Shown: positions 45,328 to 62,073 of the stretch, in pieces
How the letters are laid out: the number at the start of each line of letters is the position of its first letter
How positions within the stretch are numbered: the stretch's first letter is position 1
Assembly: GCA_019247515.1 (NCBI GenBank)
Contig: JAFAOS010000252.1
Location: 138-64,137, forward strand
Direction of reading: 5' to 3'
Length of the DNA stretch: 64,000 nucleotides
Source: Chloroflexota bacterium
GTDB taxonomy: Bacteria; Chloroflexota; UBA6077; CF-72
The notes under the pieces: model-generated
Databases searched by the model: none
What the model was told of the DNA's origin: nothing
What the model saw: the letters and a program-made list of their open reading frames with translations, nothing else
Translations under genes and position numbers: made by a program

Positions 45328-45834
45328 TCAGGCGGCTGGGCTGTGCGCGCGCAGCGGCTCCAGGTCGCCCGCGGCCATCTGCACGGCAACGTTGCCGCTG
45401 GTCAGATTCAGCAAGATACGGACGCGACCGCTCGCGCTCAGCTTTCTGTCAAAAATGCCTTCGACCCACTTGAATGGACCCGTCACCACACGCACGTGCT
45501 CACCGTTGCGGAACTCGTGGGCGTTCGAACGCAAGCGCAGCTCGTGCTCTTTGGCGCGGATCGCACCGATCAAGACATCAGGGAGCAATGCTGGCGTGCC
45601 GCCGCGTGGCAAGACATACGCGACGCCTGGCGCAGAACGGATGCGCAACAGATCGTCCGAACCTGGAGTTACCTGAACGAACACGTAACCCGGGAACAGA
45701 ATCGTCGAACTTCCGCCCTTGCGCGCCGACGGACGCGCTGGACTGTAGCATTCAACTCCGCGTGAACTGACGGCTTGCGCAACAAACGTTTCGCGGTGAG
45801 CCTGTGCCCTGAGGACGGCCCAGCGTCTTTCCAT
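45328..45834 (-). CDS. Specialized NusG paralog (RfaH/UpxY/LoaP-like antitermination factor)
   Basis: NGN domain (WAVL, LFPGYVFV, IRSAPGV) and KOW domain (GEHVRVVTGPF, RVRILL); divergent from a polysaccharide operon and not in the secE-rplK context. Confidence 0.88.
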   Translation of the reverse strand: MERRWAVLRAQAHRETFVAQAVSSRGVECYSPARPSARKGGSSTILFPGYVFVQVTPGSDDLLRIRSAPGVAYVLPRGGTPALLPDVLIGAIRAKEHELRLRSNAHEFRNGEHVRVVTGPFKWVEGIFDRKLSASGRVRILLNLTSGNVAVQMAAGDLEPLRAHSPAA

Positions 45835-45959
45835 GAGTTCTCCTGTAAGTGGGCCTCGTTTAGCCTGATCGGTGCGACCGCTGGCTGTCAAGGGCCCAAA
45901 TCAAATCAAAGTCTTGTTAAACACTCACGCACGGCTCTTGCACGCGTCGTAACAGCACA

Positions 45960-45989
45960 TTGACCCAGGCCGTTGAGCGAGTGTAGGGT
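45960..45989 (+). promoter_or_regulatory. Putative sigma70-type promoter of the polysaccharide operon
   Basis: TTGACC, 18 nt, TAGGGT. Confidence 0.45.
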
Positions 45990-46113
45990 TCTAGGAGTCG
46001 TTCGCCTTTCGATGCCGAAGGCGGGACATGGGGGTCAGCGCCGACTACCAGCCCCAGTATCACACACTCCCCGTCTGGAGTGACCCTTTGGAGTTGCCTC
46101 ATCGTGAGGAATG

Positions 46114-46125
46114 GGCGGTAGCATG
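46114..46125 (+). promoter_or_regulatory. ops-like element
   Basis: GGCGGTAGCATG fits consensus GGCGGTAGnnTG (11/12 to E. coli GGCGGTAGCGTG), on the non-template strand at the operon head. Confidence 0.65.
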
Positions 46126-47313
46126 CTCTCCGAACGTCCCGCACACCCCGCACACCCGAGACTGTCGCGCCCGCCCGATCCGCGAGCGCCTGTCGTCGTC
46201 GTTGGCGCGTCGGTCGCAGGTCTGATCGCCGCGCAACGTCTCGCTGAATCGGATATTCCCGTTCAACTGTACGAACGGACTGAACCACCAGGCGTGCGTG
46301 CGCGAACGCTGATCGTGACGCCAGAGCTGAATCGGGCGCTCGGCTTCTCGGCCGAAGCCGCCACCGTGAACAAGGTCCACACCCTGCAGCTGTACGGCAG
46401 ACACCGCTCGGTCGCCATCTCACTCAGAGAGCCCGACCTGATCGTCGAGCGCACCGCGCTCATCGGCATGCTCGCCGCCCGTGCCGAGCGTGCTGGCGTG
46501 CGCCTGGCGTATGGACACGAATTCGCCGCGCTCGAGCCCGACGGCGACGCGGCCTCGGTTGCGGTGCGGCGACGCGGGACGGATTGCCTGGAGCGCATCT
46601 CTGCTCGAGCGGTGCTGGCCGCGGACGGCGTCCGGAGTCACGTCGCACGAACGTTCGACGCCCCGCCGCTGCCCGCGGTGACGGTCCTCCAGGCGCGTGT
46701 CGAACTGCCACGCACGAGCGACCCCGGCGTTGGCAAAGTCTGGTTCCTGCCCAGCGACACGCCTTATTTCTACTGGCTGTGTCCCGAGTCCGCTCGCACC
46801 GCGGCGGTCGGAATTGTCGATGTCAAACCGCGGCAGGCGCGCGCCAAACTTGACCATTTTCTTGCAAGACACGCGCTGGCGCCTTTCGAATATCAGTCGG
46901 CGCTCATACCGCTGTACGCGCCAAACATGCGCGTAACGCGTCGAGTTGGCCGCACCGATGTTCTGTTCGTCGGCGACGCCGCGGGCCAGGTGAAGGTCAC
47001 CACCGTCGGCGGCACGGTCAGCGGTGTCCGCGGCGCCCAGGCTGCCGCGCGCGCAATCGCCAAACGCACCAACTACGGTTGGGAATCTCGGGCCGTCAAC
47101 CGCGAGCTGCGTCTGCACTGGCACATTCGCAACTTGATGAACCGTTTCCGCGACAGGGAATACGACGTGCTTTTGCAAGTCTTCGCTGGCCGGGTGGGTC
47201 GTTTGCTGGAGATTCACAATCGAGATCGACTCGAGCGCGTGTTCTGGTCGATGCTGGCGATCCAGCCGCGGCTCCCGCTGTTGGCAGCGGACGTCCTGTG
47301 GCGCGTCCGATAA
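46123..47313 (+). CDS. FAD-dependent oxidoreductase, geranylgeranyl reductase family
   Basis: VVGASVAGL, AADGVRSHV, YFYWLCP, VGDAAGQVKVTTVGG. Confidence 0.8.
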   Translation: MLSERPAHPAHPRLSRPPDPRAPVVVVGASVAGLIAAQRLAESDIPVQLYERTEPPGVRARTLIVTPELNRALGFSAEAATVNKVHTLQLYGRHRSVAISLREPDLIVERTALIGMLAARAERAGVRLAYGHEFAALEPDGDAASVAVRRRGTDCLERISARAVLAADGVRSHVARTFDAPPLPAVTVLQARVELPRTSDPGVGKVWFLPSDTPYFYWLCPESARTAAVGIVDVKPRQARAKLDHFLARHALAPFEYQSALIPLYAPNMRVTRRVGRTDVLFVGDAAGQVKVTTVGGTVSGVRGAQAAARAIAKRTNYGWESRAVNRELRLHWHIRNLMNRFRDREYDVLLQVFAGRVGRLLEIHNRDRLERVFWSMLAIQPRLPLLAADVLWRVR

Positions 47314-47360
47314 AGCGCTGAACCACCAAATTCGCACGAGTATTTTCGTGCAATCTGACT

Positions 47361-49115
47361 ATGTACATCCTCGGTATCAACGCATATCACGCTGGAGCGT
47401 CTGCTTGTCTGATACGTGACGGCGAGCTGATCGCCGCCGCGGAGGAAGAGCGTTTTCGCCGCATCAAGTACTGCGCAGGCTTTCCTTCGACGGCCATCCG
47501 CTACTGCCTGGCGGAAGGCCGAATCAGTCCGCGCGAGCTTGACCACGTGGGAATCTCGCGCGATCCGCGCGCCAACCTGCACAAGAAATTCGCCTTTGCG
47601 TTGCGCCAGCGTCCGCGTGTCGGCTTCGTCCGGGATCGGCTGCTGAATGCGGCCAGAGTGCAGGATCCGCGCTCCGCGCTGGCGGCGGCGCTCGACGTCC
47701 CGGCGCACCAGCTGAGAGCCACGTTCCACAACGTGGAGCACCATCGCGCGCACATGGCGAGCGCGTTCTACGTCTCACCGTTTCGTCGAGCCGCCATTCT
47801 GTCCGTCGACGGCATGGGCGACTTCGTCAGCACGATGTGGGGCGTCGGTCAGGACGACAACCTGCGCGTGCTGGGCGAAGTCAATTTCCCGCACTCGCTG
47901 GGCATCTTTTACACTGCGGTCTGCCAGTGGCTGGGGTTTCGCAAATACGGCGACGAGGGCAAAGTCATGGGGCTGGCGCCATACGGACAGCCGCGTTACG
48001 TAGATCTGGTGCATCGCATCGTGCGACAGCACCGCGACGGTACGTTCGAGCTGAACCAAGACGCGTTCGTCCATCAGGCGGGCGGCGCCAACATGACCTG
48101 GAACGATGGATCGCCGACGCTCGGCACGCTGTACTCACCGAGATTCCTCGAGTTATTCGGTCCCGCCAGGCAACCTGATCCGCACGGCTGGCGCGATCTC
48201 ACGACTCCAGAAAATCAGTATTACGTCGACGTCGCTGCGTCCCTGCAGGTGGTGCTCGAAGAAGCCGAGCTGGGACTCGTGAAGAACCTCCAGCGCATCA
48301 CCGGTGAAAAGGCGCTGTGCGTTGCCGGTGGAGTCGGCCTGAACAGCACGTTCAATGGCAAAATCCGGCTCGAAGCGCCCGGCTTCGAAGACGTCTTTGT
48401 CCAGCCGGCAGCTAGCGACGCGGGTACCTCGCTGGGTGTCGCCTACTACATCCACCATCAACTGTTGCGGAACCCGCGCAAGTTTGTCATGAGTGTCGCC
48501 GCCACGGGACCGGCCTTTGACGACGCAACCATCACGCAAGTTATCGACCACAACGGGCTGGACTATGAGCGCTTTGATGAAGATCAGCTTGCGCGACTCG
48601 TTGCCCAGTTGATCGAGCAAGGCAACGTGATCGGCTGGTTCCAGGACCGCATGGAGTGGGGACCTCGCGCGCTCGGCAATCGCAGCATTCTGGCCGACCC
48701 CCGACGCGAAGACATGAAGGCCATCCTCAATGCGCGGGTCAAGCATCGCGAGAGCTTTCGTCCATTTGCCCCGTCCATCCTCGCCGAAGCCACCGGTGAC
48801 TACTTCGAGCAGGACTATCCCGACCCGTTCATGACCATGGTCTATACGGTGCGCCCCGAGAAACGTTCGGTGATCCCCGCGGTGACGCACGTCGATGGCA
48901 CGGGTCGGCTGCAGAGTGTCTTCCAAGGAGCTATGCCGCTGTACTGGCAGGTCATCAAAGAATTCGAGTCGCTGACGGGCGTGCCGGTCGTCCTGAATAC
49001 CTCGTTCAACGACAACGAACCGATTGTGTGCACCCCGCAGGAAGCGGTCAACTGTTTTCTGAGGACGCGCATGGACGTGCTGGTGGTGGGTCGCCACGTC
49101 GTGCGCAAGGCGTGA
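47361..49115 (+). CDS. Carbamoyltransferase (NodU/CmcH family)
   Basis: EEERFRRIK, HHRAH, EGKVMGLAPYG, EWGPRALGNRS, HVDGTGR, NTSFN. Confidence 0.95.
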   Translation: MYILGINAYHAGASACLIRDGELIAAAEEERFRRIKYCAGFPSTAIRYCLAEGRISPRELDHVGISRDPRANLHKKFAFALRQRPRVGFVRDRLLNAARVQDPRSALAAALDVPAHQLRATFHNVEHHRAHMASAFYVSPFRRAAILSVDGMGDFVSTMWGVGQDDNLRVLGEVNFPHSLGIFYTAVCQWLGFRKYGDEGKVMGLAPYGQPRYVDLVHRIVRQHRDGTFELNQDAFVHQAGGANMTWNDGSPTLGTLYSPRFLELFGPARQPDPHGWRDLTTPENQYYVDVAASLQVVLEEAELGLVKNLQRITGEKALCVAGGVGLNSTFNGKIRLEAPGFEDVFVQPAASDAGTSLGVAYYIHHQLLRNPRKFVMSVAATGPAFDDATITQVIDHNGLDYERFDEDQLARLVAQLIEQGNVIGWFQDRMEWGPRALGNRSILADPRREDMKAILNARVKHRESFRPFAPSILAEATGDYFEQDYPDPFMTMVYTVRPEKRSVIPAVTHVDGTGRLQSVFQGAMPLYWQVIKEFESLTGVPVVLNTSFNDNEPIVCTPQEAVNCFLRTRMDVLVVGRHVVRKA

Positions 49116-50407
49116 TGCGGATTCTGGTTCTCATCCTCCAGTATCCGCCTGACGTCAACACCTCGGGTGTGCTGATGGGCCAACTGTGCGAGGGATTGGC
49201 CGCCCGCGGCCACCAGGTGTCGGTGTTGACCACTTTTCCGCACTACGAGAAGTTCCGCGTGTGGGACGAGTATCGCGGCAAGCTTCTCGATTCAGACCTG
49301 CGCAATGGCGTGGAGATCACGCGCACGTGCGTGTACGCGAATGGTCGCAAGCAGAACATGCTCAATCGTTTGCTGAGCTATCTGTCGTTCAACGTGCTGG
49401 CGACCGTCGCAGGCTCCACCTCGCGGCAGGATTATGACGTCATCCTGTGCAGCAACGGCTCCTTCTTCAGCGGCGTTGCCGCGACGGTGATCGGGCGCGT
49501 CAAAGGCGCGCCCTTCGTCTATAACGTCCAGGACCTGTATCCCGAGACGCCTGTTCAGAGTGGGCAGATCTCCAACAAACTGGTCATCGGCGCGCTCGAA
49601 CGCATCGAGCGGTTCATGTACGCGCGAGCCGCCCAGGTCAGCGTGATCGCTCCAGCATTTCGCGCCAATCTTCTGGACAAGGGCGTCCCCGCCGACAAAG
49701 TCACCACCATACCGAATTTCGTAGACGTCGATTTCATCCGGCCCTTTCCGAAGACCAACTCCTTCAGCCGCGAGCATGCACTGACCGAGAAATTCGTTGT
49801 CACGCACGCGGGCAACCTCGGTTACGTGTACGACTTTGACGCGTTGCTCGACGTCGCGTACCGAGTGCAGGCCGAGGCGGACATTCAGTTCCTGATCGTG
49901 GGTGACGGTGTGGAACGTGCGCGACTTCAGGAGCGTGCGCGGGCACTCGGCCTGCGGAACGTGCGGTTTTTGCCGTTCCAGCCGCGGCAGACTCTGCCGC
50001 TCCTTCGGGCAGCATCGGATGTCCAGGTCGCGTTGTATCGGCGCGGGTCGGCGCGCTTTTCGATGCCGTCGAAGGTCTACGAGATCATGGCCAGCTGTCG
50101 GCCGGTGCTCGCCAGCGCCGATGCCGGCAGCGACCTGCACCAGCTGGTGACCGGCGTGCGGTGCGGCATCTGCGTCGAGCCGCACAACCCGGAGAAGCTC
50201 GCCGCGGCGCTACTGGCGCTGTATCGAGATCCGGCGCTGCGCACGCGGATGGGGCAGCGCGGCCGCGATGAAGCGGTGCGCGCCTACTCACGCGACGCGA
50301 TCGTCACCCAATACGAGGAGTTGTGCCGCCACGTGGCCGTTTCCCGCGAATGGACCCCCGGGCAAGAGATCGAACGGAATCCGACACGTACGGGAGTTAT
50401 GACTTGA
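49115..50407 (+). CDS. Glycosyltransferase family 4 (WbuB-like)
   Basis: YPPD, TTFPHY, VQDLYPE, HAGNLG, PSKVYEIMA. Confidence 0.9.
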   Translation: MRILVLILQYPPDVNTSGVLMGQLCEGLAARGHQVSVLTTFPHYEKFRVWDEYRGKLLDSDLRNGVEITRTCVYANGRKQNMLNRLLSYLSFNVLATVAGSTSRQDYDVILCSNGSFFSGVAATVIGRVKGAPFVYNVQDLYPETPVQSGQISNKLVIGALERIERFMYARAAQVSVIAPAFRANLLDKGVPADKVTTIPNFVDVDFIRPFPKTNSFSREHALTEKFVVTHAGNLGYVYDFDALLDVAYRVQAEADIQFLIVGDGVERARLQERARALGLRNVRFLPFQPRQTLPLLRAASDVQVALYRRGSARFSMPSKVYEIMASCRPVLASADAGSDLHQLVTGVRCGICVEPHNPEKLAAALLALYRDPALRTRMGQRGRDEAVRAYSRDAIVTQYEELCRHVAVSREWTPGQEIERNPTRTGVMT

Positions 50408-51114
50408 CGCTTACAGACCCGACGACGTTGACATCCGACTCGCGACTCGCAACTGCTGACGCGCGGCTCTTGACCCGTGTCGCGATCCACGTCCCACCCG
50501 AGCCGATTGACCCTCTCCCCAAGCGCCTGTTCGACGTCACCCTGGCGCTCACCATGCTGGTCGTGTCGGCGCCTGTCTGGCTCGCCATCGCCGTTGCGAT
50601 CAAGCTGGACGACGCTGGTCCGGTCTTTTATCGGCAGGAGCGCTGGGGCCGGTGTCAGAAACGCTTCCAGGTGCTCAAGTTCCGCACGATGGTCGCCCAC
50701 TCCGATCGGGACTTCGGCGTGCGTCAAGCGAGTTCGGACGACCAGCGCATCACGCGCGTCGGCCGGCTCCTGCGCGCCACTGGCCTGGACGAGCTGCCGC
50801 AAATCCTGAACATCCTGCTGGGCGACATGAGCTTCGTCGGACCGCGCGCACTAGCCGTCGACGAATGCACGCGCGACGGCATTCCTATTCGCTACGATGA
50901 AACTTACGGCTTCGCCCGCCGCCTCCAGGTCCGCCCGGGCCTGACCGGTCTGGCGACCATCTATTTGCCCAAAGACGCGCCATCCGCCTTGAAGTTTCGC
51001 GTCGACCTGCTATATGTCAGCCGGTTGTCATTCTGGCTAGACCTCCGCCTGGTCGCGCTTTCGTTCTGGATCAGCTTCCGCGGCAAGTGGGAGACCCGGA
51101 CTGGCAAGCTATGA
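50404..51114 (+). CDS. Initiating phosphoglycosyl transferase (bacterial sugar transferase)
   Basis: KRLFD, KFRTM, RITRVGRLLR, LDELPQ, GDMSFVGPR, PGLTG. Confidence 0.92.
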   Translation: MTLTDPTTLTSDSRLATADARLLTRVAIHVPPEPIDPLPKRLFDVTLALTMLVVSAPVWLAIAVAIKLDDAGPVFYRQERWGRCQKRFQVLKFRTMVAHSDRDFGVRQASSDDQRITRVGRLLRATGLDELPQILNILLGDMSFVGPRALAVDECTRDGIPIRYDETYGFARRLQVRPGLTGLATIYLPKDAPSALKFRVDLLYVSRLSFWLDLRLVALSFWISFRGKWETRTGKL

Positions 51115-52004
51115 CCGTCGAAACTGAGCTGCGCCCGCCAGCCACCCTGCCCGTCACCTCCGAACCCGTTTCGGAGCCCGCAACGGAGCTGCCGTTCATC
51201 CACATCCATCCTTCAAAAGGTTGGATCCAGCTCAATCTCCGTGAGCTCTGGGATTACCGCGAGCTTGCGTATCTGCTGGCGTGGCGCGACGTCACGATCC
51301 GGTACAAACAGACCGTTTTTGGAGCCTCATGGGCCATCATCCAGCCGTTGCTGATGATGGTCGCATTTAGCATCTTCTTCGGCCAACTCGCGAAAGTACC
51401 GTCCAACGGAATCCCGTATCCGATCTTCAGCTATACCGCACTCCTGCCCTGGAACTACTTCGCCCAGGCACTGACTCGCTCGTCAAACGTGCTGGTTGGC
51501 AGTACGGCGTTGATTACGAAGGTCTACTTTCCCAGGATGCTGCTGCCAATCTCCAGCGTGCTCTCACCGCTGTTCGACTTCGCCATCGCGTTCGTGGTCC
51601 TGTTGGGGATGATGGTGTACTACCAGGTGTACCCGACACCGGCGATGCTGGCCCTTCCGGTGCTGCTGGCGATGGCGGTGATGTCGTCGGTGGGGACCGG
51701 CATGTGGTTGTCGGCGCTCAACGTCGACTATCGCGACTTCAGCAATATTTTGCCGTTCCTGGTTCAGGTCTGGATGTTCGCCACCCCGGTGGCATTTTCG
51801 AGCACACTCCTCGATGAGCCCTGGCGAACGCTGTATGGGCTGAACCCGATGACCGGCGTGATCGAAGGCTTCCGCTGGGCGTTGCTCGGGCAGGATCCCA
51901 TGTTTGCCCAGATGTTCCTGTCGGCCCTTGTCTCGATTGTGCTGCTGTTGACTGGCGCGTTCTACTACCGCCGTACAGAGCGGACGTTTGCCGACATCAG
52001 CTGA
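51111..52004 (+). CDS. wzm: Polysaccharide ABC exporter permease
   Basis: RYKQTVFG..WAIIQP, KVYFPR, LNPMTGVIEGFR. Confidence 0.92.
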   Translation: MTVETELRPPATLPVTSEPVSEPATELPFIHIHPSKGWIQLNLRELWDYRELAYLLAWRDVTIRYKQTVFGASWAIIQPLLMMVAFSIFFGQLAKVPSNGIPYPIFSYTALLPWNYFAQALTRSSNVLVGSTALITKVYFPRMLLPISSVLSPLFDFAIAFVVLLGMMVYYQVYPTPAMLALPVLLAMAVMSSVGTGMWLSALNVDYRDFSNILPFLVQVWMFATPVAFSSTLLDEPWRTLYGLNPMTGVIEGFRWALLGQDPMFAQMFLSALVSIVLLLTGAFYYRRTERTFADIS

Positions 52005-52018
52005 CTCCACCACGATCG

Positions 52019-53332
52019 ATGACTGACATTTCCGTTCGCGCCGACAACCTCGGCAAGTGGTACCGCATCGGCGAACGCGCTCACGACCGTAATGTGCGCG
52101 AAGCCGTCAACGCGGCGCTCGTCGCGCCATACCGGCTGTTGCGCCGTCGTGAGCGGCCGCGCTTTCGAGGCCGGGTTCCCGCGCCGTCCATCTGGGCACT
52201 ACGCAACGTTTCGTTCGAGTTGCGTCAGGGTGAGCTTCTGGGAATCATTGGGGTTAACGGCGCAGGCAAGAGCACGCTGCTCAAGATCCTTTCGCGCATC
52301 ACCGAACCTACTGAGGGCACGGCTGAAATGCACGGCCGGGTTCGTGCTCTGCTCGAAGTGGGCAGCGGGTTCCATCCTCAGTTGACGGGCCGGGAGAACG
52401 TCTACCTCAATGGCGCAATTCTCGGTATGAAGCGTGCCGAGGTCGCCCGCAAGTTCGACGAGATCGTTGCATTCGCCGAGATCGAGCGCTTCATCGATAC
52501 ACCAGTTCGGTGGTATTCGACAGGAATGTATGCGCGTCTCGCGTTCAGCGTGGCCGCCCACCTGGAGCCCGACGTCCTGATTGTGGACGAAGTGCTGGCG
52601 GTTGGTGATGTTGGCTTCCAACGGAAGTGCATCGCCAAGATGGGCGACGTTGCGGCTGGCGGTCGCACGGTGATCTTCGTCAGTCACATGCTGTTTGCCA
52701 TCGAGCAGCTGACGCACCGCTGTCTGGTGCTCAAGGACGGCACGCTGTGCTTCGATGGCCCAACCTCGGAGGCGCTGCGCATCTACGAGTCTTTCTTGAA
52801 AGACCCCAACGAGCAGGCGGGCACCTACGACGCGCCGCAGAGCGTGGCACACAACCACGTCACCGCTGCGCGCGTGCGCACATCATCTCCCTCCGGCGTG
52901 CACGACTGGGGCGAGCCGATGACCTTCGAGTTCGACCTTCAGATCACAGAGCCCCACAGTAGCTTGTGCTTTTCGTTCCACGTCGTAAACGAGAGCAAAC
53001 AGCCGATTGCCCACTTCTGGCTGTACGATGCCGATGTCCCCTTCCGCCGCGAGCCCGGCGTCTATCGCCTGCAATGCCATATCCCGAGACTCCGGCTCTA
53101 TATGGGGGCGTATACGCTGCAAACGTGGCTCACGGAACGCCGTTCCAACACGGTAGTCGAATCCCTCCAGGACATTTGTCCCTTCGAAGTCACTATGCAG
53201 AGCGTCCAGCGCGACGAATACGCCTGGGAGGTTGGAACGTGCACGTATCTTGAGGACGCGACTTGGCTTCCGGTCGAAAACGTGTGCGACTACATCGATA
53301 TCGATCACCAGGCGGTGCCTGGCGGCCGCTAA
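52019..53332 (+). CDS. wzt: Polysaccharide ABC exporter ATPase with C-terminal Wzt carbohydrate-binding domain
   Basis: GVNGAGKST, LTGRENVYLNG, YSTGMYARLAF, VDEVLAVGD, ~170-aa C-terminal extension. Confidence 0.93.
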   Translation: MTDISVRADNLGKWYRIGERAHDRNVREAVNAALVAPYRLLRRRERPRFRGRVPAPSIWALRNVSFELRQGELLGIIGVNGAGKSTLLKILSRITEPTEGTAEMHGRVRALLEVGSGFHPQLTGRENVYLNGAILGMKRAEVARKFDEIVAFAEIERFIDTPVRWYSTGMYARLAFSVAAHLEPDVLIVDEVLAVGDVGFQRKCIAKMGDVAAGGRTVIFVSHMLFAIEQLTHRCLVLKDGTLCFDGPTSEALRIYESFLKDPNEQAGTYDAPQSVAHNHVTAARVRTSSPSGVHDWGEPMTFEFDLQITEPHSSLCFSFHVVNESKQPIAHFWLYDADVPFRREPGVYRLQCHIPRLRLYMGAYTLQTWLTERRSNTVVESLQDICPFEVTMQSVQRDEYAWEVGTCTYLEDATWLPVENVCDYIDIDHQAVPGGR

Positions 53333-53372
53333 GGGGTGAGTTTCGTAAGGTCCGGGCCCTGTGCAAACGAGG

Positions 53373-53759: not shown

Positions 53760-56597
53760 TTGAACGGCGAATTGAGATGCTGGTGCGGAAGTAGCACGCT
53801 CCTACCGTGGTCGGACGACTACCAACGCTGCACCTCGTGCCGCTCGTTGGTCTATCGCTACCAACCATCTGAGCTGGTGCTGCGCGCTACGGACAGCGGC
53901 GAGGATTTTTATGGGCGGGACTACTGGTTCACGCACGTGAACGACCTCGCACAGCCCGATATCACCGAGCGCGCCCGGGCGGACCTCATCGAACGCTGCG
54001 TCCACTGGTTACGGGTGTTTCTGCGGTACCAGCAGCCCCCTGCGCGTGTGCTGGAGCTTGGCTGCGGCCACGGGGGTTTTCTAGCGCTCCTGCAGCGGCT
54101 CGGCTTTGAAGTCACAGGACTCGAGCTGAGTCCCTGGGTTGTCGATTACGCCCGGCGCTCTTTCGACATTCCCATGCTCCTGGGCCCCCTCGAGGACCAG
54201 CGGATCGACGATTCGTCACTGGATGCGATTGTCCTCATGGATGTCCTGGAGCACCTGCCCGACCCGGTCGGCACCATGCGGGTGGCGCTTCGGTTACTCA
54301 AGCCGGACGGATTGTTGCTCATTCAGACTCCACGCGCTCCCGAGCGCGCCAGTCATGCGGAACTGGTCGCGAGTGGTGACCGGTTTCTCTCGCAGTTGAA
54401 ACCCTACGAGCACCTGTACCTGTTAGCCGAATCGTCGCTGCGCCGACTGTTCGGCGACCTTGGTGCCGAGTACGTCACGTTCGAACCGGCAATGTTCCCG
54501 TGGTACGACATGTTCGCCGTCGTCAGTCGGGCGCGGCAAGTCGGCTCCGCATGGTCGGACGTAGAACGGAGATTGTTGTCATCGTCCGCGGGGCGGCTCA
54601 CGCTCGCATTGGTGGATGCCAGCGACAAAGCGCGCGATATGGAATCTCGCTTAGCAGAGAGCGAGCGCGATCGTGGAGCGAGATTAGACGCGATCAACCT
54701 ACTGGAAGCGCAACTTGCCCAAAGCGAGCAAGATCGAGCGGCAAGATTGGACTCTATGAAACGGTTGGAGGCGCTCCTTGCCGAGAGCGAGGCGGATCGA
54801 GCGGCGCGTCTGGTGGTGATCGAAGACCAGAGTCGACGTCTTGCGGAGACACGCTCAGAACTCGGCCGCGCTCAGCAGGAAATCGCACGTGTCACGTTGC
54901 TCCGAAGTGGTGCGGGCGCCGAAAAGACGGTGAACCCCTCAGCGCGCCCGCTGACGCGGGTTGACATTGACCTGACCCCGCTTCTCGTCGGCGGCGCGAA
55001 CGGCGGAGCCCGGTTGGTCGCACTCTCGATGCTGCCGCACCTCAGCAGGTTGGCCCCGGAGGTCCACTTCACACTGCTGACCAACGACCTTAACCACGCC
55101 AGCCTTGCCCACCTGGACTCGCCGAACATGTCGCGACAGCTTCTGGGACTACGATCAGCGCCGGCGGTGCCAGTTGCAGTTGCTCCGTACCGGCGCATGC
55201 TGGCGCGCATTCACCGGCGGGCGGACCGGTTTGTACCGGGCCGCCTCAAGCCCCTGGTCCCCCGCGCGGCCGTGAATGCGCCGCCACCGGTCCAGCGGGA
55301 GTCGGACGATGAAGCGGCAACGCCCGACGTCGTGTTCTGCCCATTCACGGCTCCCCATGCGTACGATCCAAGGATTCCGCTGGTCTCGACAATTCACGAC
55401 TTGCAGTACATCTACCACCCGAACTTCTTTTCCGCGGCGGAGCGCGTGGAGCGCGGACGCACTTTCGGGTCCGCCTGCCGACTCGCAGACCGTCTAGTGT
55501 GTGTTTCCGAGTACGTTCGCAGCACGGTTCTGGGCAACGGCGACATAGCGCCAGACCGAGTCATCACGATTCCACTGGGCCTGCTGCAGGACTTGCCGCG
55601 CCCCTTGCCAGAGCAAACCGCACACGTGCTGACAGAATTGAACGTGCGTGCGGGACAATACCTGCTGTTCCCGTCGAATTTCTGGTCGCACAAGAACCAT
55701 CGAATGCTCCTCACCGCGCTTGGCATGTACTTTGCCCGACATCGGCATTCTGCACTGCAGATCGTTTGCACCGGGACACCTGACGGTCAAATGGAGGAGA
55801 TCCGAAGGGCCGCATGCGGCATGCACCTGGACCACGCCGTGATGCTGCCAGGGTTTGTTTCGGACGAACAGCTTGCCGCTCTGTATCAGGGGTGTCTGGC
55901 GGTTATATTTCCATCCCTGTACGAGGGGTTTGGAATGCCTGTGCTGGAGGCGATGGCGTTCAACAAACCCGTACTCTGCAGCAATATCACCAGCCTCCCC
56001 GAAGTCGTCGGCGACGCTGCCCTCACGTTCGATCCGCGCAAGCCTGAAGAAATCGTCAACGCCATAGAGCATATCGAGTTAGAGCCGGATCTTGCTGTCG
56101 ATTTGATGCACCGTGGACAAGCGCGAGCCGGCATGTTTGGCGGGAGCCGCGAATTGGCAGAACGGTACCTGCAGGTCTTTCGCGATGTTCTTGCAGAGGG
56201 AAAGCGCCAACTTGCCGACGGCATGCATGGTATCCACAATGATGGCTGGATTGGGGATCGTGCGCTGATCAGTCACGCGCGCGCGGACCGCCCGCGTGTG
56301 CTGGAATTGCAGCTAAATGCCCCGGACTGGTCACCTTCCTCCAGTACGACGGTGATAGTGGAGGGCAAAGCTGCCAACCTGCACCGGCAATACGCGATCC
56401 CGCGTGGAGAACGGCTGCTCATACGTGAGGTGCTGCCCGCAACTGGCGGCGTCATCGAGTTATTCGTGTCTCCAGCCCTTGCGCCCAGTTCGTTGGGGTT
56501 CAGCTCCGATGGGAGGGAACTTGGATGCCTGTGCGATGTGGCTCGTCTGCTTACCGGCGAGGCAAGTGTCGACCTGAAATCTCTGAACGATGCCTGA
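53760..56597 (+). CDS. Methyltransferase - coiled coil - GT4 glycosyltransferase fusion
   Basis: CWC..CTSC, VLELGCGHG, DVLEHL; 21-aa repeats; TIHDLQ, HKNH, PSLYEGFGMPVLEAM. Confidence 0.88.
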   Translation: MNGELRCWCGSSTLLPWSDDYQRCTSCRSLVYRYQPSELVLRATDSGEDFYGRDYWFTHVNDLAQPDITERARADLIERCVHWLRVFLRYQQPPARVLELGCGHGGFLALLQRLGFEVTGLELSPWVVDYARRSFDIPMLLGPLEDQRIDDSSLDAIVLMDVLEHLPDPVGTMRVALRLLKPDGLLLIQTPRAPERASHAELVASGDRFLSQLKPYEHLYLLAESSLRRLFGDLGAEYVTFEPAMFPWYDMFAVVSRARQVGSAWSDVERRLLSSSAGRLTLALVDASDKARDMESRLAESERDRGARLDAINLLEAQLAQSEQDRAARLDSMKRLEALLAESEADRAARLVVIEDQSRRLAETRSELGRAQQEIARVTLLRSGAGAEKTVNPSARPLTRVDIDLTPLLVGGANGGARLVALSMLPHLSRLAPEVHFTLLTNDLNHASLAHLDSPNMSRQLLGLRSAPAVPVAVAPYRRMLARIHRRADRFVPGRLKPLVPRAAVNAPPPVQRESDDEAATPDVVFCPFTAPHAYDPRIPLVSTIHDLQYIYHPNFFSAAERVERGRTFGSACRLADRLVCVSEYVRSTVLGNGDIAPDRVITIPLGLLQDLPRPLPEQTAHVLTELNVRAGQYLLFPSNFWSHKNHRMLLTALGMYFARHRHSALQIVCTGTPDGQMEEIRRAACGMHLDHAVMLPGFVSDEQLAALYQGCLAVIFPSLYEGFGMPVLEAMAFNKPVLCSNITSLPEVVGDAALTFDPRKPEEIVNAIEHIELEPDLAVDLMHRGQARAGMFGGSRELAERYLQVFRDVLAEGKRQLADGMHGIHNDGWIGDRALISHARADRPRVLELQLNAPDWSPSSSTTVIVEGKAANLHRQYAIPRGERLLIREVLPATGGVIELFVSPALAPSSLGFSSDGRELGCLCDVARLLTGEASVDLKSLNDA

Positions 56598-57489
56598 TAT
56601 CTCAATAGTTACTCCATCGTTCAACCAGGGACGCTTTATCGAGCGCACTATTCGGAGCGTGCTCGAACAAGAGTTCGACGGACGGGCCCTGGAATATGTC
56701 GTCGTCGATGGCGCCAGTACCGATGACACCGTTGAGGTCCTGCAACGATTCGGCAAGCGGCTGAGCTGGGTCTCCGAGCCGGATCGGGGCCAGGCGCATG
56801 CCGTCAACAAGGGGCTGGCCATGACCTCGGGACAGATCATCGGCTGGCTGAACTCAGATGATATCTACTATCCAGGCGCGTTCCGGAGTATCTGGCAATG
56901 CTTCGCCGCGCATCCGGAGGTCGATCTCGTCTACGGTGATGCAAACCATATCGGCACGGATGACGCCGTGCTCGAGCCGTACTACACCGAGCCGTGGGAC
57001 TTCGAGCGGCTCAAAGACGTCTGCTATCTTTGCCAACCAGCAGTGTTCTTCCGGCGCCGCCTGTTTCAGCGTATTGGCGGCATGGATGAGCGGCTGCACT
57101 TCTGCATGGACTACGACTACTGGGTTCGAGCTGCACTGTCAGAAGCGCATTTTGAATACCTGCCAATTACGCTCGCCGGCTCGCGTTGGTACCCGGAGAA
57201 CAAAACGGTCAGTGGCTGGGCCGCCAGTCACGCGGAGATCAACGACGTACTGTTGCGTCGACTTGGCTACGTGCCTGACCGCTGGATCTTCAACTACGCG
57301 CATGTGGTCCTCCGGCAATCACGTCTCCGTGAAGAGGATCGGCTACGCTTTACGATTCTGGTTTCCGCGCTTTCTATGTATGCATCCCTGCGATGGAATC
57401 ACCGCATTACGCCGGGGGTCCTCGGCACAGTCAGGCACTGGGTAGGAGGCACAGTTCGGAGTTCGCTCCAACAGGCGTGGGCGCGGTGA
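56590..57489 (+). CDS. Glycosyltransferase family 2
   Basis: SIVTPSFNQG, VDGASTD, WLNSDD, MDYDYW. Confidence 0.93.
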   Translation: MPDISIVTPSFNQGRFIERTIRSVLEQEFDGRALEYVVVDGASTDDTVEVLQRFGKRLSWVSEPDRGQAHAVNKGLAMTSGQIIGWLNSDDIYYPGAFRSIWQCFAAHPEVDLVYGDANHIGTDDAVLEPYYTEPWDFERLKDVCYLCQPAVFFRRRLFQRIGGMDERLHFCMDYDYWVRAALSEAHFEYLPITLAGSRWYPENKTVSGWAASHAEINDVLLRRLGYVPDRWIFNYAHVVLRQSRLREEDRLRFTILVSALSMYASLRWNHRITPGVLGTVRHWVGGTVRSSLQQAWAR

Positions 57490-58649
57490 AAATCGGGTTC
57501 GACGTGAGCCAGACGGGGCGTCTCAAAGCGGGTTGCGGCTATTTCGCGGATAGTCTCATTCAGCATCTCGTAAAAGAGACCGTGGATGAATATGTGCTCT
57601 ACCCGACTTTCGGCGACAACGTTTGGGATGAAGAATGGCCGACGGCGACGCGCTTCTTTTCTGATAGATGGAACGTCCACCGCGGGCTGGGCCACAGATC
57701 GAGCGAGGACCTTGAAGCATTCTGGCGCAATCCACCTGACGATTTGGATGAGCAGCTCGGGCAACCGGACATCGTGCATGCAAACAACTTCTACTGTCCT
57801 ACCCGATTGCGGAGGGCGCGAATCGTCTACACGTTGCACGACCTGGCATTCACCGTCTATCCTGAGTGGACGACCGAGGTCAACCGAACAGCGTGCTTCA
57901 GCGGCGTCTTCAACGCAAGCCTGTATGCTGATCACATCGTCGCCAACTCCGAATACACGCGACGGCATTTCTTGGAAACGTTTCCGCACTACCCGCCCCA
58001 GCGAATTAGCGTCGTGTACCCTGGCAGTCGATTCACTGGCCCCGCCCAACCGACACGTCCGGCTACACTGCCGTATCTCGAAGCGGGCCAGTTCTGGCTA
58101 ACGGTCGGGACCGTCGAACCACGCAAGAACTACATCCGTTTGCTGCAAGCGTACGCACGTCTTCGTGCCAGTGTTGCCAATTGTCAGCCGCTGGTCCTGG
58201 TGGGCGGTAAAGGCTGGCTAATGCATGAACTGGATGTGTATCTGGAAGAATTTGGACTTCTCGGCAGCGTCGTCTATCTCGGCTACGTGGACGACGAGAC
58301 GCTACAGTGGCTGTACGAGAATTGCCTCGCATTCTGCTATCCGTCTCTTTTCGAGGGCTTCGGCATGCCTGTCGCCGAAGCCATGAGTCTGGGAGCGGCA
58401 ACTATCGTCTCTGACGCCACCTCGTTACCGGAGATCGCCGGCGGAGCTGGACTCCTCGTGGACCCCGAGGACACGGAGCAAATCGCGAGCGCGATGCGTA
58501 CTCTCGCGGAAAATAGCGCGTTGCGGACATCGATACAGCACAAGGTGCTAGAAGCCTGCAAGAGATTCACATGGGAGCGCGCGGCGGCTCGGGTCAGCGA
58601 TATCTATCGGGCTGTGCTCGAGCACCCGGCCTTCGAAAGCCGGGTGTGA
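57486..58649 (+). CDS. Glycosyltransferase family 4
   Basis: TLHDL, GTVEPRKN, PSLFEGFGMPVAEAM. Confidence 0.93.
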   Translation: MKIGFDVSQTGRLKAGCGYFADSLIQHLVKETVDEYVLYPTFGDNVWDEEWPTATRFFSDRWNVHRGLGHRSSEDLEAFWRNPPDDLDEQLGQPDIVHANNFYCPTRLRRARIVYTLHDLAFTVYPEWTTEVNRTACFSGVFNASLYADHIVANSEYTRRHFLETFPHYPPQRISVVYPGSRFTGPAQPTRPATLPYLEAGQFWLTVGTVEPRKNYIRLLQAYARLRASVANCQPLVLVGGKGWLMHELDVYLEEFGLLGSVVYLGYVDDETLQWLYENCLAFCYPSLFEGFGMPVAEAMSLGAATIVSDATSLPEIAGGAGLLVDPEDTEQIASAMRTLAENSALRTSIQHKVLEACKRFTWERAAARVSDIYRAVLEHPAFESRV

Positions 58650-58815: not shown

Positions 58816-59529
58816 ATGACGCACGACCAATTAGCTGAGCGAATTGCCTCGAAGCAGTGGTATCACATCATAGAAGTCAGTCCAGGACTCAGGACGCCAG
58901 GTCGGTACGATCCAAGTCCGCTCCTCGATACTATGGGGTTTCCGAAGGATTTGACTGGGAAGACCGTACTGGACATTGGGTCGTACGATGGTTTCTTCGC
59001 GTTTGAGGCGGAAAAAAGAGGAGCTCAGCGCGTATTAGCGACGGACCGGCACCCAGCTGATCATGCTGGATTTGCGATCGCGCGCGAACTTCGCGGCTCC
59101 AAGGTGGAATACCAGCCCACCTCAGTTTATGATCTGTCACCGGAAGTTCACGGCACCTTCGACGTCGTTTTGTTCCTCGGAGTCTTGTATCACCTGCGTC
59201 ATCCTCTTCTTGCGATGGACAAGATACACAGTGTCTGTCGGGAGTACATGTTTCTAGAATCACATGTTCTCGACAATGCGTTTGTTTTCGACGGGAACCA
59301 GTACAATTCGGCAGAATTACATCCGAACCTGGTTCAGTCTCCTATCATGCAGTTCTATCCTGGTGATGAGCTGAACCAGGATCTATCGAACTGGTTTGCG
59401 CCAAATATCAAGTGCGTGGAATTGATGCTCGGCTCTTCGGGCTTTCGGCCGAGACTCGTTGGGCAGTGGGCAGATCGAGCCTCCTTTCTGGCGGATAGGC
59501 AGGAATTCGTCCAGCCTTTTTGGTACTGA
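58816..59529 (+). CDS. Class I SAM-dependent methyltransferase (DUF1698/CmoB-like)
   Basis: WYH, GKTVLDIGSYDGFF, FDVVLFLGVLYHLRHP. Confidence 0.88.
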   Translation: MTHDQLAERIASKQWYHIIEVSPGLRTPGRYDPSPLLDTMGFPKDLTGKTVLDIGSYDGFFAFEAEKRGAQRVLATDRHPADHAGFAIARELRGSKVEYQPTSVYDLSPEVHGTFDVVLFLGVLYHLRHPLLAMDKIHSVCREYMFLESHVLDNAFVFDGNQYNSAELHPNLVQSPIMQFYPGDELNQDLSNWFAPNIKCVELMLGSSGFRPRLVGQWADRASFLADRQEFVQPFWY

Positions 59530-59538
59530 CGAAACTGG

Positions 59539-59652: not shown

Positions 59653-60825
59653 GTGAATGTGAAAGTTCCACCTGATTGCCTGTTCTATCAGGCCATAGAG
59701 CTACCTGGCATAGGGCTCATCGATGGATCATGGGACCATCGAGAGACCGCGGACGACTATTTAGGCCACGTTGATTTCTCCGGTAGGCGGGTTCTAGACG
59801 TTGGACCTGCCAACGGGTTCTTCTCGTTCGAAATGGAACGTCGCGGTGGAGAGGTCACGGCCCTTGATCTAGGACCGGAGGGTGACTGGGACGCGGTCCC
59901 ACAGCCATATCTCGAATCCACATTCGTGGTTGGGAATCTGAGACAAAATGTACAACGCGCGGAGAATGCGTTTTGGTTCGCACACCGAACACTCAATTCG
60001 AGGGTGAAGCTTCTCTATGGCTCCGTTTATGATACGCCGGCACTGATCTCCCAGGTCGACATTGGTTTAATGGGGAATGTTCTGCAACACCTTCGTGATC
60101 CCTTTCGGGGTATTGAACGAGTTGCGCAAGTTGTTGCAGATACGCTGATCATCACGGAGGCTGTGTGGTATTCAGACGAGGCTTTCTTAACGATGCCAGC
60201 CATGCGCCTGATTCCAAATGCAGACTCGCCGTACTGCAACCACTCCTGGTGGCAAGTGTCACCAAGGCTGGCGATGGAGATTCTCCGTCTACTGGGGTTC
60301 CCACAGTTGTCGCTTAAGTTCCACGAACAGAGGTTCGTTTCGTCTGCGACGGATAGCGAAGCACGATGGGTTACGCATTTCACAGTGACTGGTAAGAGGC
60401 CGTGCAGGCTTGAGGATCACACAACTTCCGGTGGTGAAGTGCGAGTAGTTTTCCCTGATAACGCCTGGTACTCTGAGGAGCGAGGGTCAGTCCATCGCTG
60501 GCGCTGGTCATCCGAGAGTAGCTCCAGCGTATGGATCGACAATCTCGGTACTCGGGATGATCCAGTGTCAATCGCTTGCGGTTTGGCGAGTTTGCAGCAC
60601 GACACGATCGAGCTGCGGCTGAACGGGTCGATGGTGTGGAGCGGACCAGTCGTCGGGTATCCGACAGGGGTATTCACGACATCTGCAGCGCTAAAGCCTG
60701 GGAGGAACATACTAGAGTTCCGTGCTACCAAACCGGCGAGCCGTTCTGCAGGCGATTCACGTCTCCTTAGCTTTGCCGTCTATGATATCGCGCTTTCAAA
60801 GCAGTTGGGGTGGCCGTCAGTGTGA
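59653..60825 (+). CDS. Class I SAM-dependent methyltransferase with C-terminal beta-rich domain
   Basis: RVLDVGPANGFFSFEME, LQHLRDP; C-terminal W..EE..WRWS..D.R.L pattern; AGGAGG RBS. Confidence 0.85.
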   Translation: MNVKVPPDCLFYQAIELPGIGLIDGSWDHRETADDYLGHVDFSGRRVLDVGPANGFFSFEMERRGGEVTALDLGPEGDWDAVPQPYLESTFVVGNLRQNVQRAENAFWFAHRTLNSRVKLLYGSVYDTPALISQVDIGLMGNVLQHLRDPFRGIERVAQVVADTLIITEAVWYSDEAFLTMPAMRLIPNADSPYCNHSWWQVSPRLAMEILRLLGFPQLSLKFHEQRFVSSATDSEARWVTHFTVTGKRPCRLEDHTTSGGEVRVVFPDNAWYSEERGSVHRWRWSSESSSSVWIDNLGTRDDPVSIACGLASLQHDTIELRLNGSMVWSGPVVGYPTGVFTTSAALKPGRNILEFRATKPASRSAGDSRLLSFAVYDIALSKQLGWPSV

Positions 60826-60863: not shown

Positions 60864-61001
60864 TGCTTTGTGCCAAATGTCAGGTGTCTTGAGCTGATGC
60901 TCAGTTCTTCGGGCTTTCGCCCCCGCCTCGTCGGGCAATGGGGAGATCGAGCGTCGTTTATGGCTGATCGGCTGGAATTTGGCCGGCCTGTTTGGTACTA
61001 A
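60864..61001 (+). pseudogene. 3' fragment of a paralog of the 58816-59529 methyltransferase
   Basis: FVPNVRCLELMLSSSGFRPRLVGQWGDRASF...WY versus FAPNIKCVELMLGSSGFRPRLVGQWADRASF...WY. Confidence 0.8.
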
Positions 61002-61008
61002 GCAGCCC

Positions 61009-62073
61009 ATGACGATCACAGGCGCGAACACGCGAGTTGATCTTGCGACGGCCCTACAGAAGGAACTCAGCGAGGTCATTCAATTTAAGTTAGCGGAGCG
61101 GCTCGACAGCAACCGCGTTGGCCTGCTCGACGTCCTGTACGCCTACAGACTGTTTCTGGGCCGCTGGCCTGAGTTCGACTCGATTGACTCCCTCACAGCG
61201 AAAATAGGTTCTAACGACCTACAGAGCTTTGCGCTCGGGTTCGTCACATCGCCGGAGTTCAAGACCCGGTTTCCGCAGGCTTCCGAGGCCCTCGACATGG
61301 TAGTAATGCGAGAAATGGCGGACGGGACGCATCTACATTTCAATCTCGCAGATCTGCAATCCCTACGCATCTCGACGGGGCTGCATGAGCTACCAATTCA
61401 GGAAGGGATGCTGCGCGTTTTGCGGCCGGGAATGAACTGTGTGGATGCGGGAGCGCACATCGGTATGTACTCCCTGCTGATGGGCAGGACTGTGCGACCG
61501 CCTGTTGCAAGGTGGTGGCGCGGTGGTGGTGGCGGCAAGGTGTACAGCTTTGAGCCGTTTCCGAGAACTTGGCCGCTGCTTCTGCGCAATATCAATGCGA
61601 ATCATTTGCAAAACACGGTGGTCGCGACAAATGCAGCTTGTCACGCCCATCCTGGGCGGGGCCGCATGTTCAAGAATCCCCACGACCCTGGCAATTTGGG
61701 AGAAGTATTCGTCCGAGCGGGTGCATCAGGCGATGCCACCGGAACGGCGGAAGTCGACCTGGTGCGAGTCGACGACGTGGTCCCGAGTTACGTACGGATC
61801 GGTTTAGTCAAAATCGACATCGAAGGGTCTGAGCCCGCCGCGATGGAGGGCATGCAGCGGATCCTGCATCGAGACCGTCCGATCATTTTCACCGAATTCA
61901 ACCCCGGTGCACTGGAATCGATCGGCGACATGACTGCGGCCGAGTATCTCGGGTTCCTCGAGGAGGCCGGGTATCGGTGTCGAGAAGTGGATAACTTCCT
62001 ATTGGATAACGCGACGGAATACGAGTATCAAGAAGGAGACAAGACGACTAACTTGGTCTGCGAGCCGAAGTGA
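61009..62073 (+). CDS. FkbM family methyltransferase
   Basis: VDAGAHIG, YSFEP, VKIDIEGSE, EFNP; N-terminal AYRLFLGR..SPEF domain. Confidence 0.9.
   Translation: MTITGANTRVDLATALQKELSEVIQFKLAERLDSNRVGLLDVLYAYRLFLGRWPEFDSIDSLTAKIGSNDLQSFALGFVTSPEFKTRFPQASEALDMVVMREMADGTHLHFNLADLQSLRISTGLHELPIQEGMLRVLRPGMNCVDAGAHIGMYSLLMGRTVRPPVARWWRGGGGGKVYSFEPFPRTWPLLLRNINANHLQNTVVATNAACHAHPGRGRMFKNPHDPGNLGEVFVRAGASGDATGTAEVDLVRVDDVVPSYVRIGLVKIDIEGSEPAAMEGMQRILHRDRPIIFTEFNPGALESIGDMTAAEYLGFLEEAGYRCREVDNFLLDNATEYEYQEGDKTTNLVCEPK

Follow-up and report, generated by a model that had tools for sequence, protein, structure and literature searches.

RfaH is the textbook elongation factor recruited by a signal in non-template DNA, the ops element. 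Work on this system has dealt almost exclusively with Proteobacteria, and UpxY/opsX of Bacteroides joined it in 2024. We report an ops-type element, GGCGGTAGCATG, in a stretch of 64,000 nt from a Chloroflexota bacterium (contig JAFAOS010000252.1 of assembly GCA_019247515.1), called here the window. The element lies on the non-template strand at the head of a long cluster of polysaccharide genes, and a gene for an RfaH-like paralog of NusG is transcribed divergently from that cluster. The same core recurs beside orthologous paralogs in the class to which this genome belongs. We judge it probable, at roughly three chances in four, that the 12-mer is a working recruitment-and-pause element of the RfaH/UpxY type, serving the locus-linked NusG paralog.

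A sequence-only reading of the window had proposed a self-contained RfaH/ops-type antitermination module in a lineage outside the Proteobacteria. The observation itself is confirmed, and that first interpretation is supported. The NusG paralog with NGN and KOW domains, claimed to be divergent from a cluster of more than 17 kb, was recovered by its Pfam NGN match and by AlphaFold2, and 15 co-directional open reading frames (ORFs) follow on the plus strand from 46111 to the window end, over at least 17.9 kb. The 12-mer does overlap the probable first start codon, since ATG codons lie at 46111 and 46123. The lineage also holds, as judged by record titles and genome grouping: the closest public orthologs of the protein belong to an uncultured Chloroflexia bacterium (81% identity) and to a Chloroflexota bacterium (55%). 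A 47%-identical ortholog stands in a record titled Proteobacteria bacterium (L055, genome G016), which is grouped in the window's order, and this title is probably a mislabel. The window's own genome, G000, has 8.3 Mb at 65.9% G+C and two NusG-family genes, a housekeeping one on contig C322 and the window paralog.

Evidence for a working element comes from its recurrence beside the paralog. With the window protein as query, the paralog was found in 14 of 39 genomes of the order (E<=1e-15) and in 24 of 66 genomes of the class, at 26 loci (E<=1e-14). Its distribution is patchy, with 3/9 genomes of the window's genus carrying it, G000 included. Two unpublished genomes belong to the class sample: G038, with no paralog found and positive for Rho, and G049, which is counted below among the 24 paralog genomes, the 11 exact loci, the 14 proximal model matches and the 44 Rho-positive genomes. 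Exact GGCGGTAGNNTG lies 73-309 nt from the paralog at 11 of the 26 loci (10/25 without G049), while 0.045 matches are expected in 26 flanks at the rate of G000. In eight of these loci the copy closely follows the paralog on the same strand, in one it precedes the paralog, again on the same strand, and in two (G000 and G005) it is divergent. One-mismatch forms stand in the equivalent place in G002 (TGCGGTAGCTTG) and G041 (GGCGGTAGCCCG). When 9-mers in the flanks were counted without reference to ops, the top word was GGCGGTAGC, present at 10 of 11 loci.

The loci with the element come from eight or more lineages whose flanking sequences are unrelated. The first gene after it encodes a FAD-binding oxidoreductase in G005 and G002, as in the window, a nucleotidyltransferase in G030, an O-antigen polymerase in G042, a GHMP kinase in G015, a GT2 glycosyltransferase in G041 and a GNVR chain-length protein in G056. 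It is followed by a TPR protein and a MurJ flippase in G025, and by a HAD hydrolase and an epimerase in G047. In G021 the element precedes the paralog itself, and DegT aminotransferases come next. The first downstream genes are thus non-homologous, yet all are polysaccharide-related, and the predicted conservation of the motif in the leaders of orthologs (11/26 exact plus two one-mismatch forms, in several families) was borne out. Coding constraint was rejected as the cause of the motif, because the downstream genes are unrelated and the element flanks vary in reading frame by one extra G. One-mismatch matches in G019 and G037 were dropped, being inside SIS-domain coding sequence. As a control, the exact motif was sought in 80 loci of remoter relatives (409 kb) and found in three, the G005 record and two of Alcanivorax; it was found in 0/12 paralog loci of other Chloroflexota classes.

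A wider search was made with R1, a 32-nt sequence model built from 13 elements of the class and run over the 66 class genomes at a cut-off of E<=0.02. It gave 34 matches, which were sorted by inspection. Fourteen adjoin a paralog, including that of G049 and a new one in G025, where the paralog is a fragment at the end of a contig; thirteen of the fourteen trained R1 and match by construction. In G015 one match is found 5.5 kb upstream within the same cluster. Seven are distal and intergenic and are followed by sugar genes in the same direction (SIS, HAD with epimerase, Wzz, P-loop kinase-like), two are ambiguous, and four are otherwise coding or antisense. The leader-type sites number 22, and 21 of them are in the 24 paralog-bearing genomes. 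Among the distal ones this holds for 6/7 (binomial p 0.011 if sites were random among genomes), the exception being a typical element in G048, a genome 82% complete with no paralog detected. Counted by genome, the paralog adjoins an element in 13 of 24, and is not a stand-alone gene acting in trans; six more genomes hold distal elements only. The sequence-only reading had called the module self-contained, which is true for G000 with its one credible element, and not for relatives that also hold distal elements.

The remaining six R1 matches are in a conserved coding peptide, G-K-G-G-S-M-H (G000:C94:1106-1134, two in G036, and one each in G019, G008 and G001), of a presumed pyruvate dehydrogenase E1 alpha gene. 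The sequence that encodes it nearly repeats the ops word and yields false matches when high-GC genomes are scanned. Two arrangements were seen in addition. In G015 (L143, contig C92) one cluster has two elements, at 7752 and 14016, one before two genes leading into the paralog and the other after it. In G025 (L219, contig C214) a second paralog, a fragment at the contig end, has an element of its own.

The 12-mer was also counted within the window and its genome. One match was found in the window against 0.04 expected, and 4 of 100 shuffles gave at least one. The expectation for sense-strand matches in the 276-nt leader is about 0.0003. G000 has 16 matches on both strands, compared with 46 for a reversed-pattern control and with a mean of 24.9 (median 18.5) for 40 composition-matched shuffled patterns. 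Among the other 15 exact copies, 13 are in coding-like frames, and two either run antisense to an ORF or precede no sugar genes; on these grounds they were rejected as extra targets. The R1 matches on contigs C41 and C94 of G000 look coding as well. The element at 46114 is the sole credible one in this genome.

Alignment of the 13 elements shows positions 2-9, GCGGTAGC, invariant in all, and position 12 invariant too. Position 1 is G in 12/13, position 11 is T in 12/13 and C in one, and position 10 is free. The window's 12-mer had been noted to depart from E. coli ops, GGCGGTAGCGTG (Zuber 2018 resources table), only at a variable position. All eight E. coli ops sites are reported to encode GCGGTAGC (Saba 2024, PMC11685472). 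According to Zuber 2018, RfaH recruitment in E. coli requires C3-G8 and pausing does not; C3:G8 closes a small non-template hairpin presenting G5 and T6, and the T11/G12 step drives the pause. In most loci of the class a hairpin of variable sequence ends 3-8 nt before the element, and its stability is above average in 10/12 when compared with 32-nt windows of the same loci (combined p 0.002 on 9 lineages). This hairpin support comes from per-sequence folds, R1 being a sequence-only model. The distance from element to start codon runs from overlap to 104 nt, and an ATG or GTG at element positions 10-12 is the likely start in G000/G005 and G015/G020.

From these features we propose the following course of events. 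RNA polymerase in the leader would pause at the T11/G12 step, and the single-stranded non-template GCGGTAGC would form a small hairpin by C3:G8 and possibly also G2:C9. The neighbouring RfaH-like NusG paralog would load at this hairpin, stay on the polymerase and help to complete the cluster of at least 18 kb. It could do so by anti-pausing, by competition with the housekeeping NusG and possibly by coupling its KOW domain to the ribosome; antitermination by the paralog is putative. The upstream hairpin may act as a nascent-RNA pause hairpin as in Bacteroides opsX, of which we infer by analogy that it is the counterpart. Targeting probably combines the DNA signal with a local supply of the factor in cis, because the factor has a predicted constitutive beta-KOW form and is usually encoded less than 300 nt from the element.

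The window protein has the two-domain NGN and KOW architecture of NusG, as seen with Pfam NGN, AlphaFold2 and Foldseek. Among NCBIfam hidden Markov models (HMMs) its best match is RfaH (TIGR01955), at 72.9 bits against a cut-off of 144.5, followed by UpxY (NF033644; 49.2 vs 100), NusG (TIGR00922; 40.1 vs 135.7) and LoaP (NF033641; 29.6 vs 125). The RfaH model is the best match for all 25 members, with a best E of 1.4e-32, about 114 bits by conversion. In a sample of 401 genomes of the phylum, unpublished G221 included, a family profile gave three groups of scores: the class clade at 182 bits or more, paralogs of other classes at 103-175, and housekeeping NusG at about 91-102. The profile matched 2096 entries of a large protein collection (E<=1e-5). 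Among the best 120 of these, many from JGI are labelled 'transcriptional antiterminator RfaH', so automatic pipelines already name these proteins RfaH, while those from NCBI are 'NusG family protein' or 'hypothetical protein'; organism names in the same 120 are mostly Chloroflexota or Chloroflexi, with one Isosphaeraceae and one Dehalococcoidia.

A maximum-likelihood tree of 77 rows was built from the 25 class paralogs, from 43 specialised paralogs and an unplaced NusG-like sequence (L095) of other phyla, and from E. coli RfaH and 7 rows treated as housekeeping NusG (including those of E. coli, of the window's own genome, of G027 and of G010). G049 and the duplicate L055 were left out, and the tree covers NusG, RfaH and paralogs of other phyla, with no UpxY, LoaP or TaA references. 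The class paralogs are monophyletic (support 100/99). They stand outside both a clade (100/95) that unites paralogs of Acidobacteriota, Xanthomonadales-type, Desulfobacterales and Lentisphaeria origin and the proteobacterial RfaH clade with its E. coli member (98/89); they are therefore no recent transfer of a proteobacterial rfaH. Their link to proteobacterial RfaH together with an Anaerolineae group is weak (75/67). In an alignment with E. coli RfaH, all 25 members retain F130 and also F56, a residue for tight polymerase binding. The Rho-binding loop I-F-G is found in 0/25; the nearest is I-F-Q in one member, and the window protein has L-T-S. By Foldseek the model matches NusG and active RfaH (8phk, 6c6s) over the full length, and autoinhibited RfaH over the NGN domain only.

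Several results weigh against a working recruitment-and-pause element of this type. The 12-mer is without genome-wide enrichment, its count being at or below background, and its placement alone is non-random; the background frequency that had been named as a danger to the first interpretation is thus real for the genome and not for the neighbourhood of the paralog. Thirteen of the 26 paralog loci have neither an exact nor a one-mismatch element within 450 nt, and 5/24 paralog-bearing genomes (G014, G037, G043, G045 and G050) have no credible element after the wider search either. In two of these, G045 and G050, the paralog is followed by a T-less form, GGCGGAGC[GT]TG; in the residue table of 25 members, no clear pattern linked protein residues to this variant. 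The genomes are kin and not independent, and the Poisson and binomial figures given above overstate the case. The window's own hairpin is no better than background, 0.58 of background windows being at least as stable. No RNA run was listed as carrying window 45300-48300; the four metagenomes that hold it are marked DNA (a kind that was guessed), with the sample labels rock, root and rhizosphere.

Other points of this kind come from the protein. The class proteins fail the RfaH HMM cut-off. The side chains of RfaH that contact ops are K10, H20, R23 and R73 (Zuber 2018), and their counterparts in the window protein are Q, A, S and P. K10 is K in 16/25 members, the positions of H20 and R23 are variable, and in 24/25 a P stands in place of R73, as in NusG; by this alignment, three of the four contacts are not conserved. 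E48 is kept in 21/25, and is T in the window protein. AlphaFold2 predicted an NGN domain and a C-terminal domain (CTD) in the form of a KOW-like beta barrel for the window protein (pLDDT 90) and also a beta-barrel CTD for a G025 member that keeps K10 and E48 (pLDDT 88.5), although with an alignment of 25 sequences it may miss a second CTD state. The ops-triggered fold switch that ties RfaH to ops may therefore be absent here. Regarding the RfaH/ops type claimed by the sequence-only reading, the ranking of RfaH as best HMM speaks for it, while the cut-off and H20, R23 and R73 did not hold and the CTD is not predicted to be helical. These proteins should not be filed as RfaH, given their HMM scores, contact residues, tree position and gene placement.

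The absence of most RfaH DNA-contact residues is also a point in favour of a different explanation, in which the element is read as RNA: the hairpin and GGCGGUAGC in the transcript would bind the paralog in the manner of LoaP, or would bind another RNA-binding factor. A variable-sequence hairpin precedes the element in most loci, with the combined p already given, and is framed in some lineages by an outer helix together with conserved linkers (GAG...GTCGAA, GCGAG...GTTGCGAT). The best sequence match in the PDB is 8f5g, listed as a 'NusG-RNA complex' (E 4.5e-6), just ahead of RfaH (1.3e-5). However, the invariant core is identical to the E. coli non-template hairpin GCGGTAGC, the LoaP model is the weakest of the four NusG-family HMM matches, and the window's own locus has a weak hairpin. 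Moreover, the hairpin region of Bacteroides is described as mattering as duplex DNA and as a pause hairpin, and not as an RNA ligand (Saba 2024, PMC11685472). We consider reading as RNA improbable, and recruitment by non-template DNA the better account.

It is less probable still that the element is a pause or translation-start signal independent of the paralog, such as a plain consensus pause coupling the loading of ribosomes at the neighbouring start codon, or the site of another regulator, its co-occurrence with the paralog reflecting shared inheritance of the cluster. The likely start codon at positions 10-12 in G000/G005 and G015/G020, an ATG directly 5' of the element in other lineages and the element of G048 with no paralog detected would suit such a signal. 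Nevertheless, the invariant bases are central, and a consensus pause leaves the central ops bases free (Zuber 2018). In some loci the element is far 5' of any start (104 nt in G056, 57 nt in G025), 21/22 leader-type sites are in paralog-bearing genomes, and the element stays beside the paralog in three gene arrangements. Finally, that a GC-rich 12-mer happens to lie here, by chance or as a coding artefact, has next to no probability: the genome-wide count and the six of 34 model matches inside coding sequence would allow it, but 11 of 26 orthologous loci against 0.045 expected, unrelated downstream genes with flanks differing in frame by one extra G, and the unbiased 9-mer count all contradict it.

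The working element that we favour would serve a factor whose benefit is not simply the opposition of Rho. Rho (TIGR00767) was above cut-off in 44/66 class genomes. None was found among the 11 genomes of the window's family, f1 (57-93% complete, G000 included), or among the 4 genomes of family f11, and 3/11 genomes of the window's family carry the paralog and the element. Since Rho was not found there, the benefit of the factor in this family is probably not anti-Rho, and opposing Rho is unlikely to be its role. The persistence of the factor in such a family means that anti-Rho action cannot be its whole benefit.

An exact RfaH core signal is thus present across a class of Chloroflexota beside a clade of proteins without most of the DNA contacts of RfaH and predicted not to switch fold. 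This offers a natural test of the order in which DNA recognition, autoinhibition and action in trans evolved, and of how the ops hairpin is read, which are questions raised in the literature (Wang et al. 2020; bioRxiv 2026, PMC13015549). It also offers an annotation rule, drawn from the genomes compared, that in this class a GCGGTAGC leader element would mark polysaccharide operons under NusG-paralog control. More tentatively, and with more doubt than confidence, it is tempting to propose that reading of the GCGGTAGC non-template hairpin did not originate in Proteobacteria together with the RfaH fold switch, and is an older property of a deep NusG-paralog clade. Here it would be done by a constitutively beta-KOW factor in cis without H20, R23 and R73, with other residues reading the same signal. 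The words GGCGAAGC (Acidobacteriota), GGCGGAGC (Xanthomonadales-type) and YGCGNAGCR (Bacteroides) would in that case be forms of a single ancient code pairing NusG paralogs with polysaccharide operons, a code that would work without Rho in the window's family.

The coordinates of the locus are collected in Table 1. The paralog ORF spans 45328-45891 on the minus strand, and the gene proper, without its stop codon, 45331-45834; the start at 45834 was chosen because the resulting N-terminus aligns with those of the orthologs. The TGTCAA block of its candidate promoter is invariant in an alignment of the intergenic regions of G000, G005 and G002. From the candidate operon promoter, the ops element would fall about 118 nt into the transcript. 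A consensus promoter scan of the intergenic region reported none, and neither candidate passed it. Rfam gave no match in window 45300-46700, JUMPstart at E<=1 included.

Table 1. Features of the paralog locus and the sugar gene cluster (positions in the window)
Feature	Position	Strand	Remarks
RfaH-like NusG paralog	45328..45834	-	168 aa + stop, ATG at 45834; Pfam NusG NGN E 3.2e-11
Candidate -35 of paralog promoter	45886..45891	-	TGTCAA on + strand, TTGACA on - strand
Candidate operon promoter	45960..45989	+	TTGACC-N18-TAGGGT, read from sequence; common to G005
Upstream hairpin	46097..46109	+	5-bp stem CCTCA-TCG-TGAGG, ends 4 nt before ops; GAGG in 3' arm
Ops-type element GGCGGTAGCATG	46114..46125	+	Coding (non-template) strand of downstream genes
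FAD-binding oxidoreductase, first gene	46111..47313	+	Pfam FAD_binding_3 E 3e-17; ATG 46111 or 46123
Carbamoyltransferase	47361..49115	+	Pfam Carbam_trans_N, Carbam_trans_C
GT4 glycosyltransferase	49028..50407	+	Pfam
Initiating sugar transferase (Bac_transf)	50323..51114	+	Pfam E 1.3e-56
ABC-2 permease (Wzm-like)	51087..52004	+	Pfam
ABC ATPase with Wzt_C domain	52019..53332	+	Pfam
Methyltransferase-GT4 fusion, 955 aa	53730..56597	+	Pfam, ORF list
GT2 glycosyltransferase	56590..57489	+	Pfam
GT4 glycosyltransferase	57393..58649	+	Pfam
Methyltransferase	58816..59529	+	Pfam
ORF, weak methyltransferase match	59653..60825	+	Pfam Methyltransf_11 E 4.6e-5
FkbM-type methyltransferase	60979..62073	+	Pfam
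NAD-dependent epimerase/dehydratase	62262..63251	+	Pfam
Co-directional ORF cut by window end	63355..63999	+	No Pfam match

The 15 co-directional ORFs form a putative single operon, and include three GT4 glycosyltransferases (one fused to a methyltransferase), one GT2, a Wzm/Wzt-type ABC exporter and three methyltransferases besides the ORF with a weak methyltransferase match. The largest gap, 397 nt at 53333-53729 ahead of the methyltransferase-GT4 fusion, leaves room for a possible internal promoter or processing site; the scan reported no terminator-like site in it. Over 45800-64000, both strands, 13 terminator-like sites were counted, against 14.5 in shuffles. On the other side, the paralog neighbours a MarR-GNAT fusion (41372-42307, plus strand), an Nramp transporter (42464-43894, minus strand) and a protein with MgtE_N and CBS domains (43861-45105, minus strand), none with an evident tie to the element.

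Leader elements were also seen near other paralog clades. In Acidobacteriota-type loci (L057-L129) a hairpin of the CTCAC...GTGAG type is followed by GGCGAAGC(T), on the paralog strand and about 70-120 nt upstream of the paralog. This 8-mer is present in 31/36 loci, 25 of them at that position, and resembles the opsX core YGCGNAGCR. In Xanthomonadales-type loci (L097, L098, L118 and L130) a hairpin and then GGGCGGAGCC are found in 4/6 loci, about 250-370 nt after the paralog, and their T-less core GGCGGAGC[GT]TG is the one met in class genomes G050 and G045. In Alcanivorax (L102 and L117) exact GGCGGTAGCGTG lies at 3104, about 100 nt downstream of a gammaproteobacterial RfaH-like gene; it is preceded by an upstream hairpin and a GGTAG repeat, in a cis arrangement like that of the class. 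The gene after it is presumably of MarR type, as its N-terminus looked so. At the Rfam gathering threshold, 20 loci of other paralog clades gave no match but one unrelated ALIL element. About 700 nt upstream of the G056 paralog, on the minus strand, L047 2671-2784 matches the c-di-GMP-II riboswitch weakly (32.1 bits vs a gathering score of 53.5, E 0.0044).

The class system shares with RfaH/ops of E. coli and other Proteobacteria a two-domain NusG paralog and a signal in the leaders of long surface-polysaccharide operons. At the sequence level, this signal fits GGCGGTAGnnTG on the non-template strand, with the 8-nt core GCGGTAGC, the T11-G12 step and the free position 10. Also shared are F56, F130 and the loss of the Rho-binding loop, and RfaH is the top-scoring HMM. 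In contrast, the class proteins fall below the HMM cut-off, form a clade of their own, do not conserve H20, R23 and R73, and have a predicted beta-barrel CTD where that of RfaH is helical. Rho was not found in the window's family. The class gene adjoins its target, and RfaH genes are described as standing alone, whereas loaP, taA and upxY sit beside their targets (Wang & Artsimovitch 2021 review). The class element is preceded by a hairpin, while RfaH ops is described as lacking a pause hairpin (Saba 2024, PMC11685472).

The sequence-only reading had stated that other cis-encoded paralogs are not known to use this consensus. This is outdated, as UpxY is reported to read opsX, of about 40 bp, in which a related non-template hairpin, 5'-YGCGNAGCR, goes together with a pause hairpin (Saba 2024, Nat Commun, PMC11685472). 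UpxY/opsX is similar to the class system in having a locus-linked NusG paralog at a polysaccharide operon, an upstream hairpin followed by a non-template hairpin with a GCG..AGC stem and, in some classes of element, a nearby start codon. It differs in the loop, which here is RfaH-like, with GGTA between C3 and G8, and in the UpxY HMM score below cut-off. Here there is mostly one paralog per genome, against eight reported for Bacteroides, and it is usually upstream of or divergent from the element, whereas in the UpxY system it is described as downstream.

Monomorphic beta-RfaH homologs predicted by AlphaFold2 have been described beside long operons, with some ops-binding residues missing and with ops-independent activity in an E. 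coli reporter (bioRxiv 2026, PMC13015549). They share with the class proteins the predicted beta CTD, the adjacent long operon and the loss of some ops residues and of the Rho loop. In contrast to their ops independence, a strictly conserved ops core stands beside the gene here. The string 'chloroflex' has 0 occurrences in the main text of that report. PrfaH/ActX (PMC11880322) is likewise an RfaH-type factor in cis with an ops-like site in the leader of its own operon; it differs in belonging to enterobacterial conjugation plasmids, in having the element upstream of the factor gene, and in its target, the transfer operon. JUMPstart RNA (Rfam RF01707) is an ops-associated stem-loop of polysaccharide leaders, listed as gamma-proteobacterial (Weinberg 2010); the 13 class leader loci gave no JUMPstart match at E<=10 in a search with RF01707 and other Rfam families.

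RfaH hits have been reported in 23/117 phyla, about 95% of them in Proteobacteria, and 'Chloroflex' was not found in the main text of that study (Wang et al. 2020). Its authors place the loss of Rho binding and tighter polymerase binding first, with DNA recognition and autoinhibition arising later and together. No earlier description of a NusG paralog plus GGCGGTAG system in Chloroflexota was found, most subscription journals lying outside the search. Judged from sequence comparison, the system fits best as a variant of the RfaH/UpxY kind, found in a new phylum. It pairs a distinct clade of NusG paralogs, most of them locus-linked, in one class of Chloroflexota with an ops core identical to that of E. 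coli and an opsX-like hairpin.

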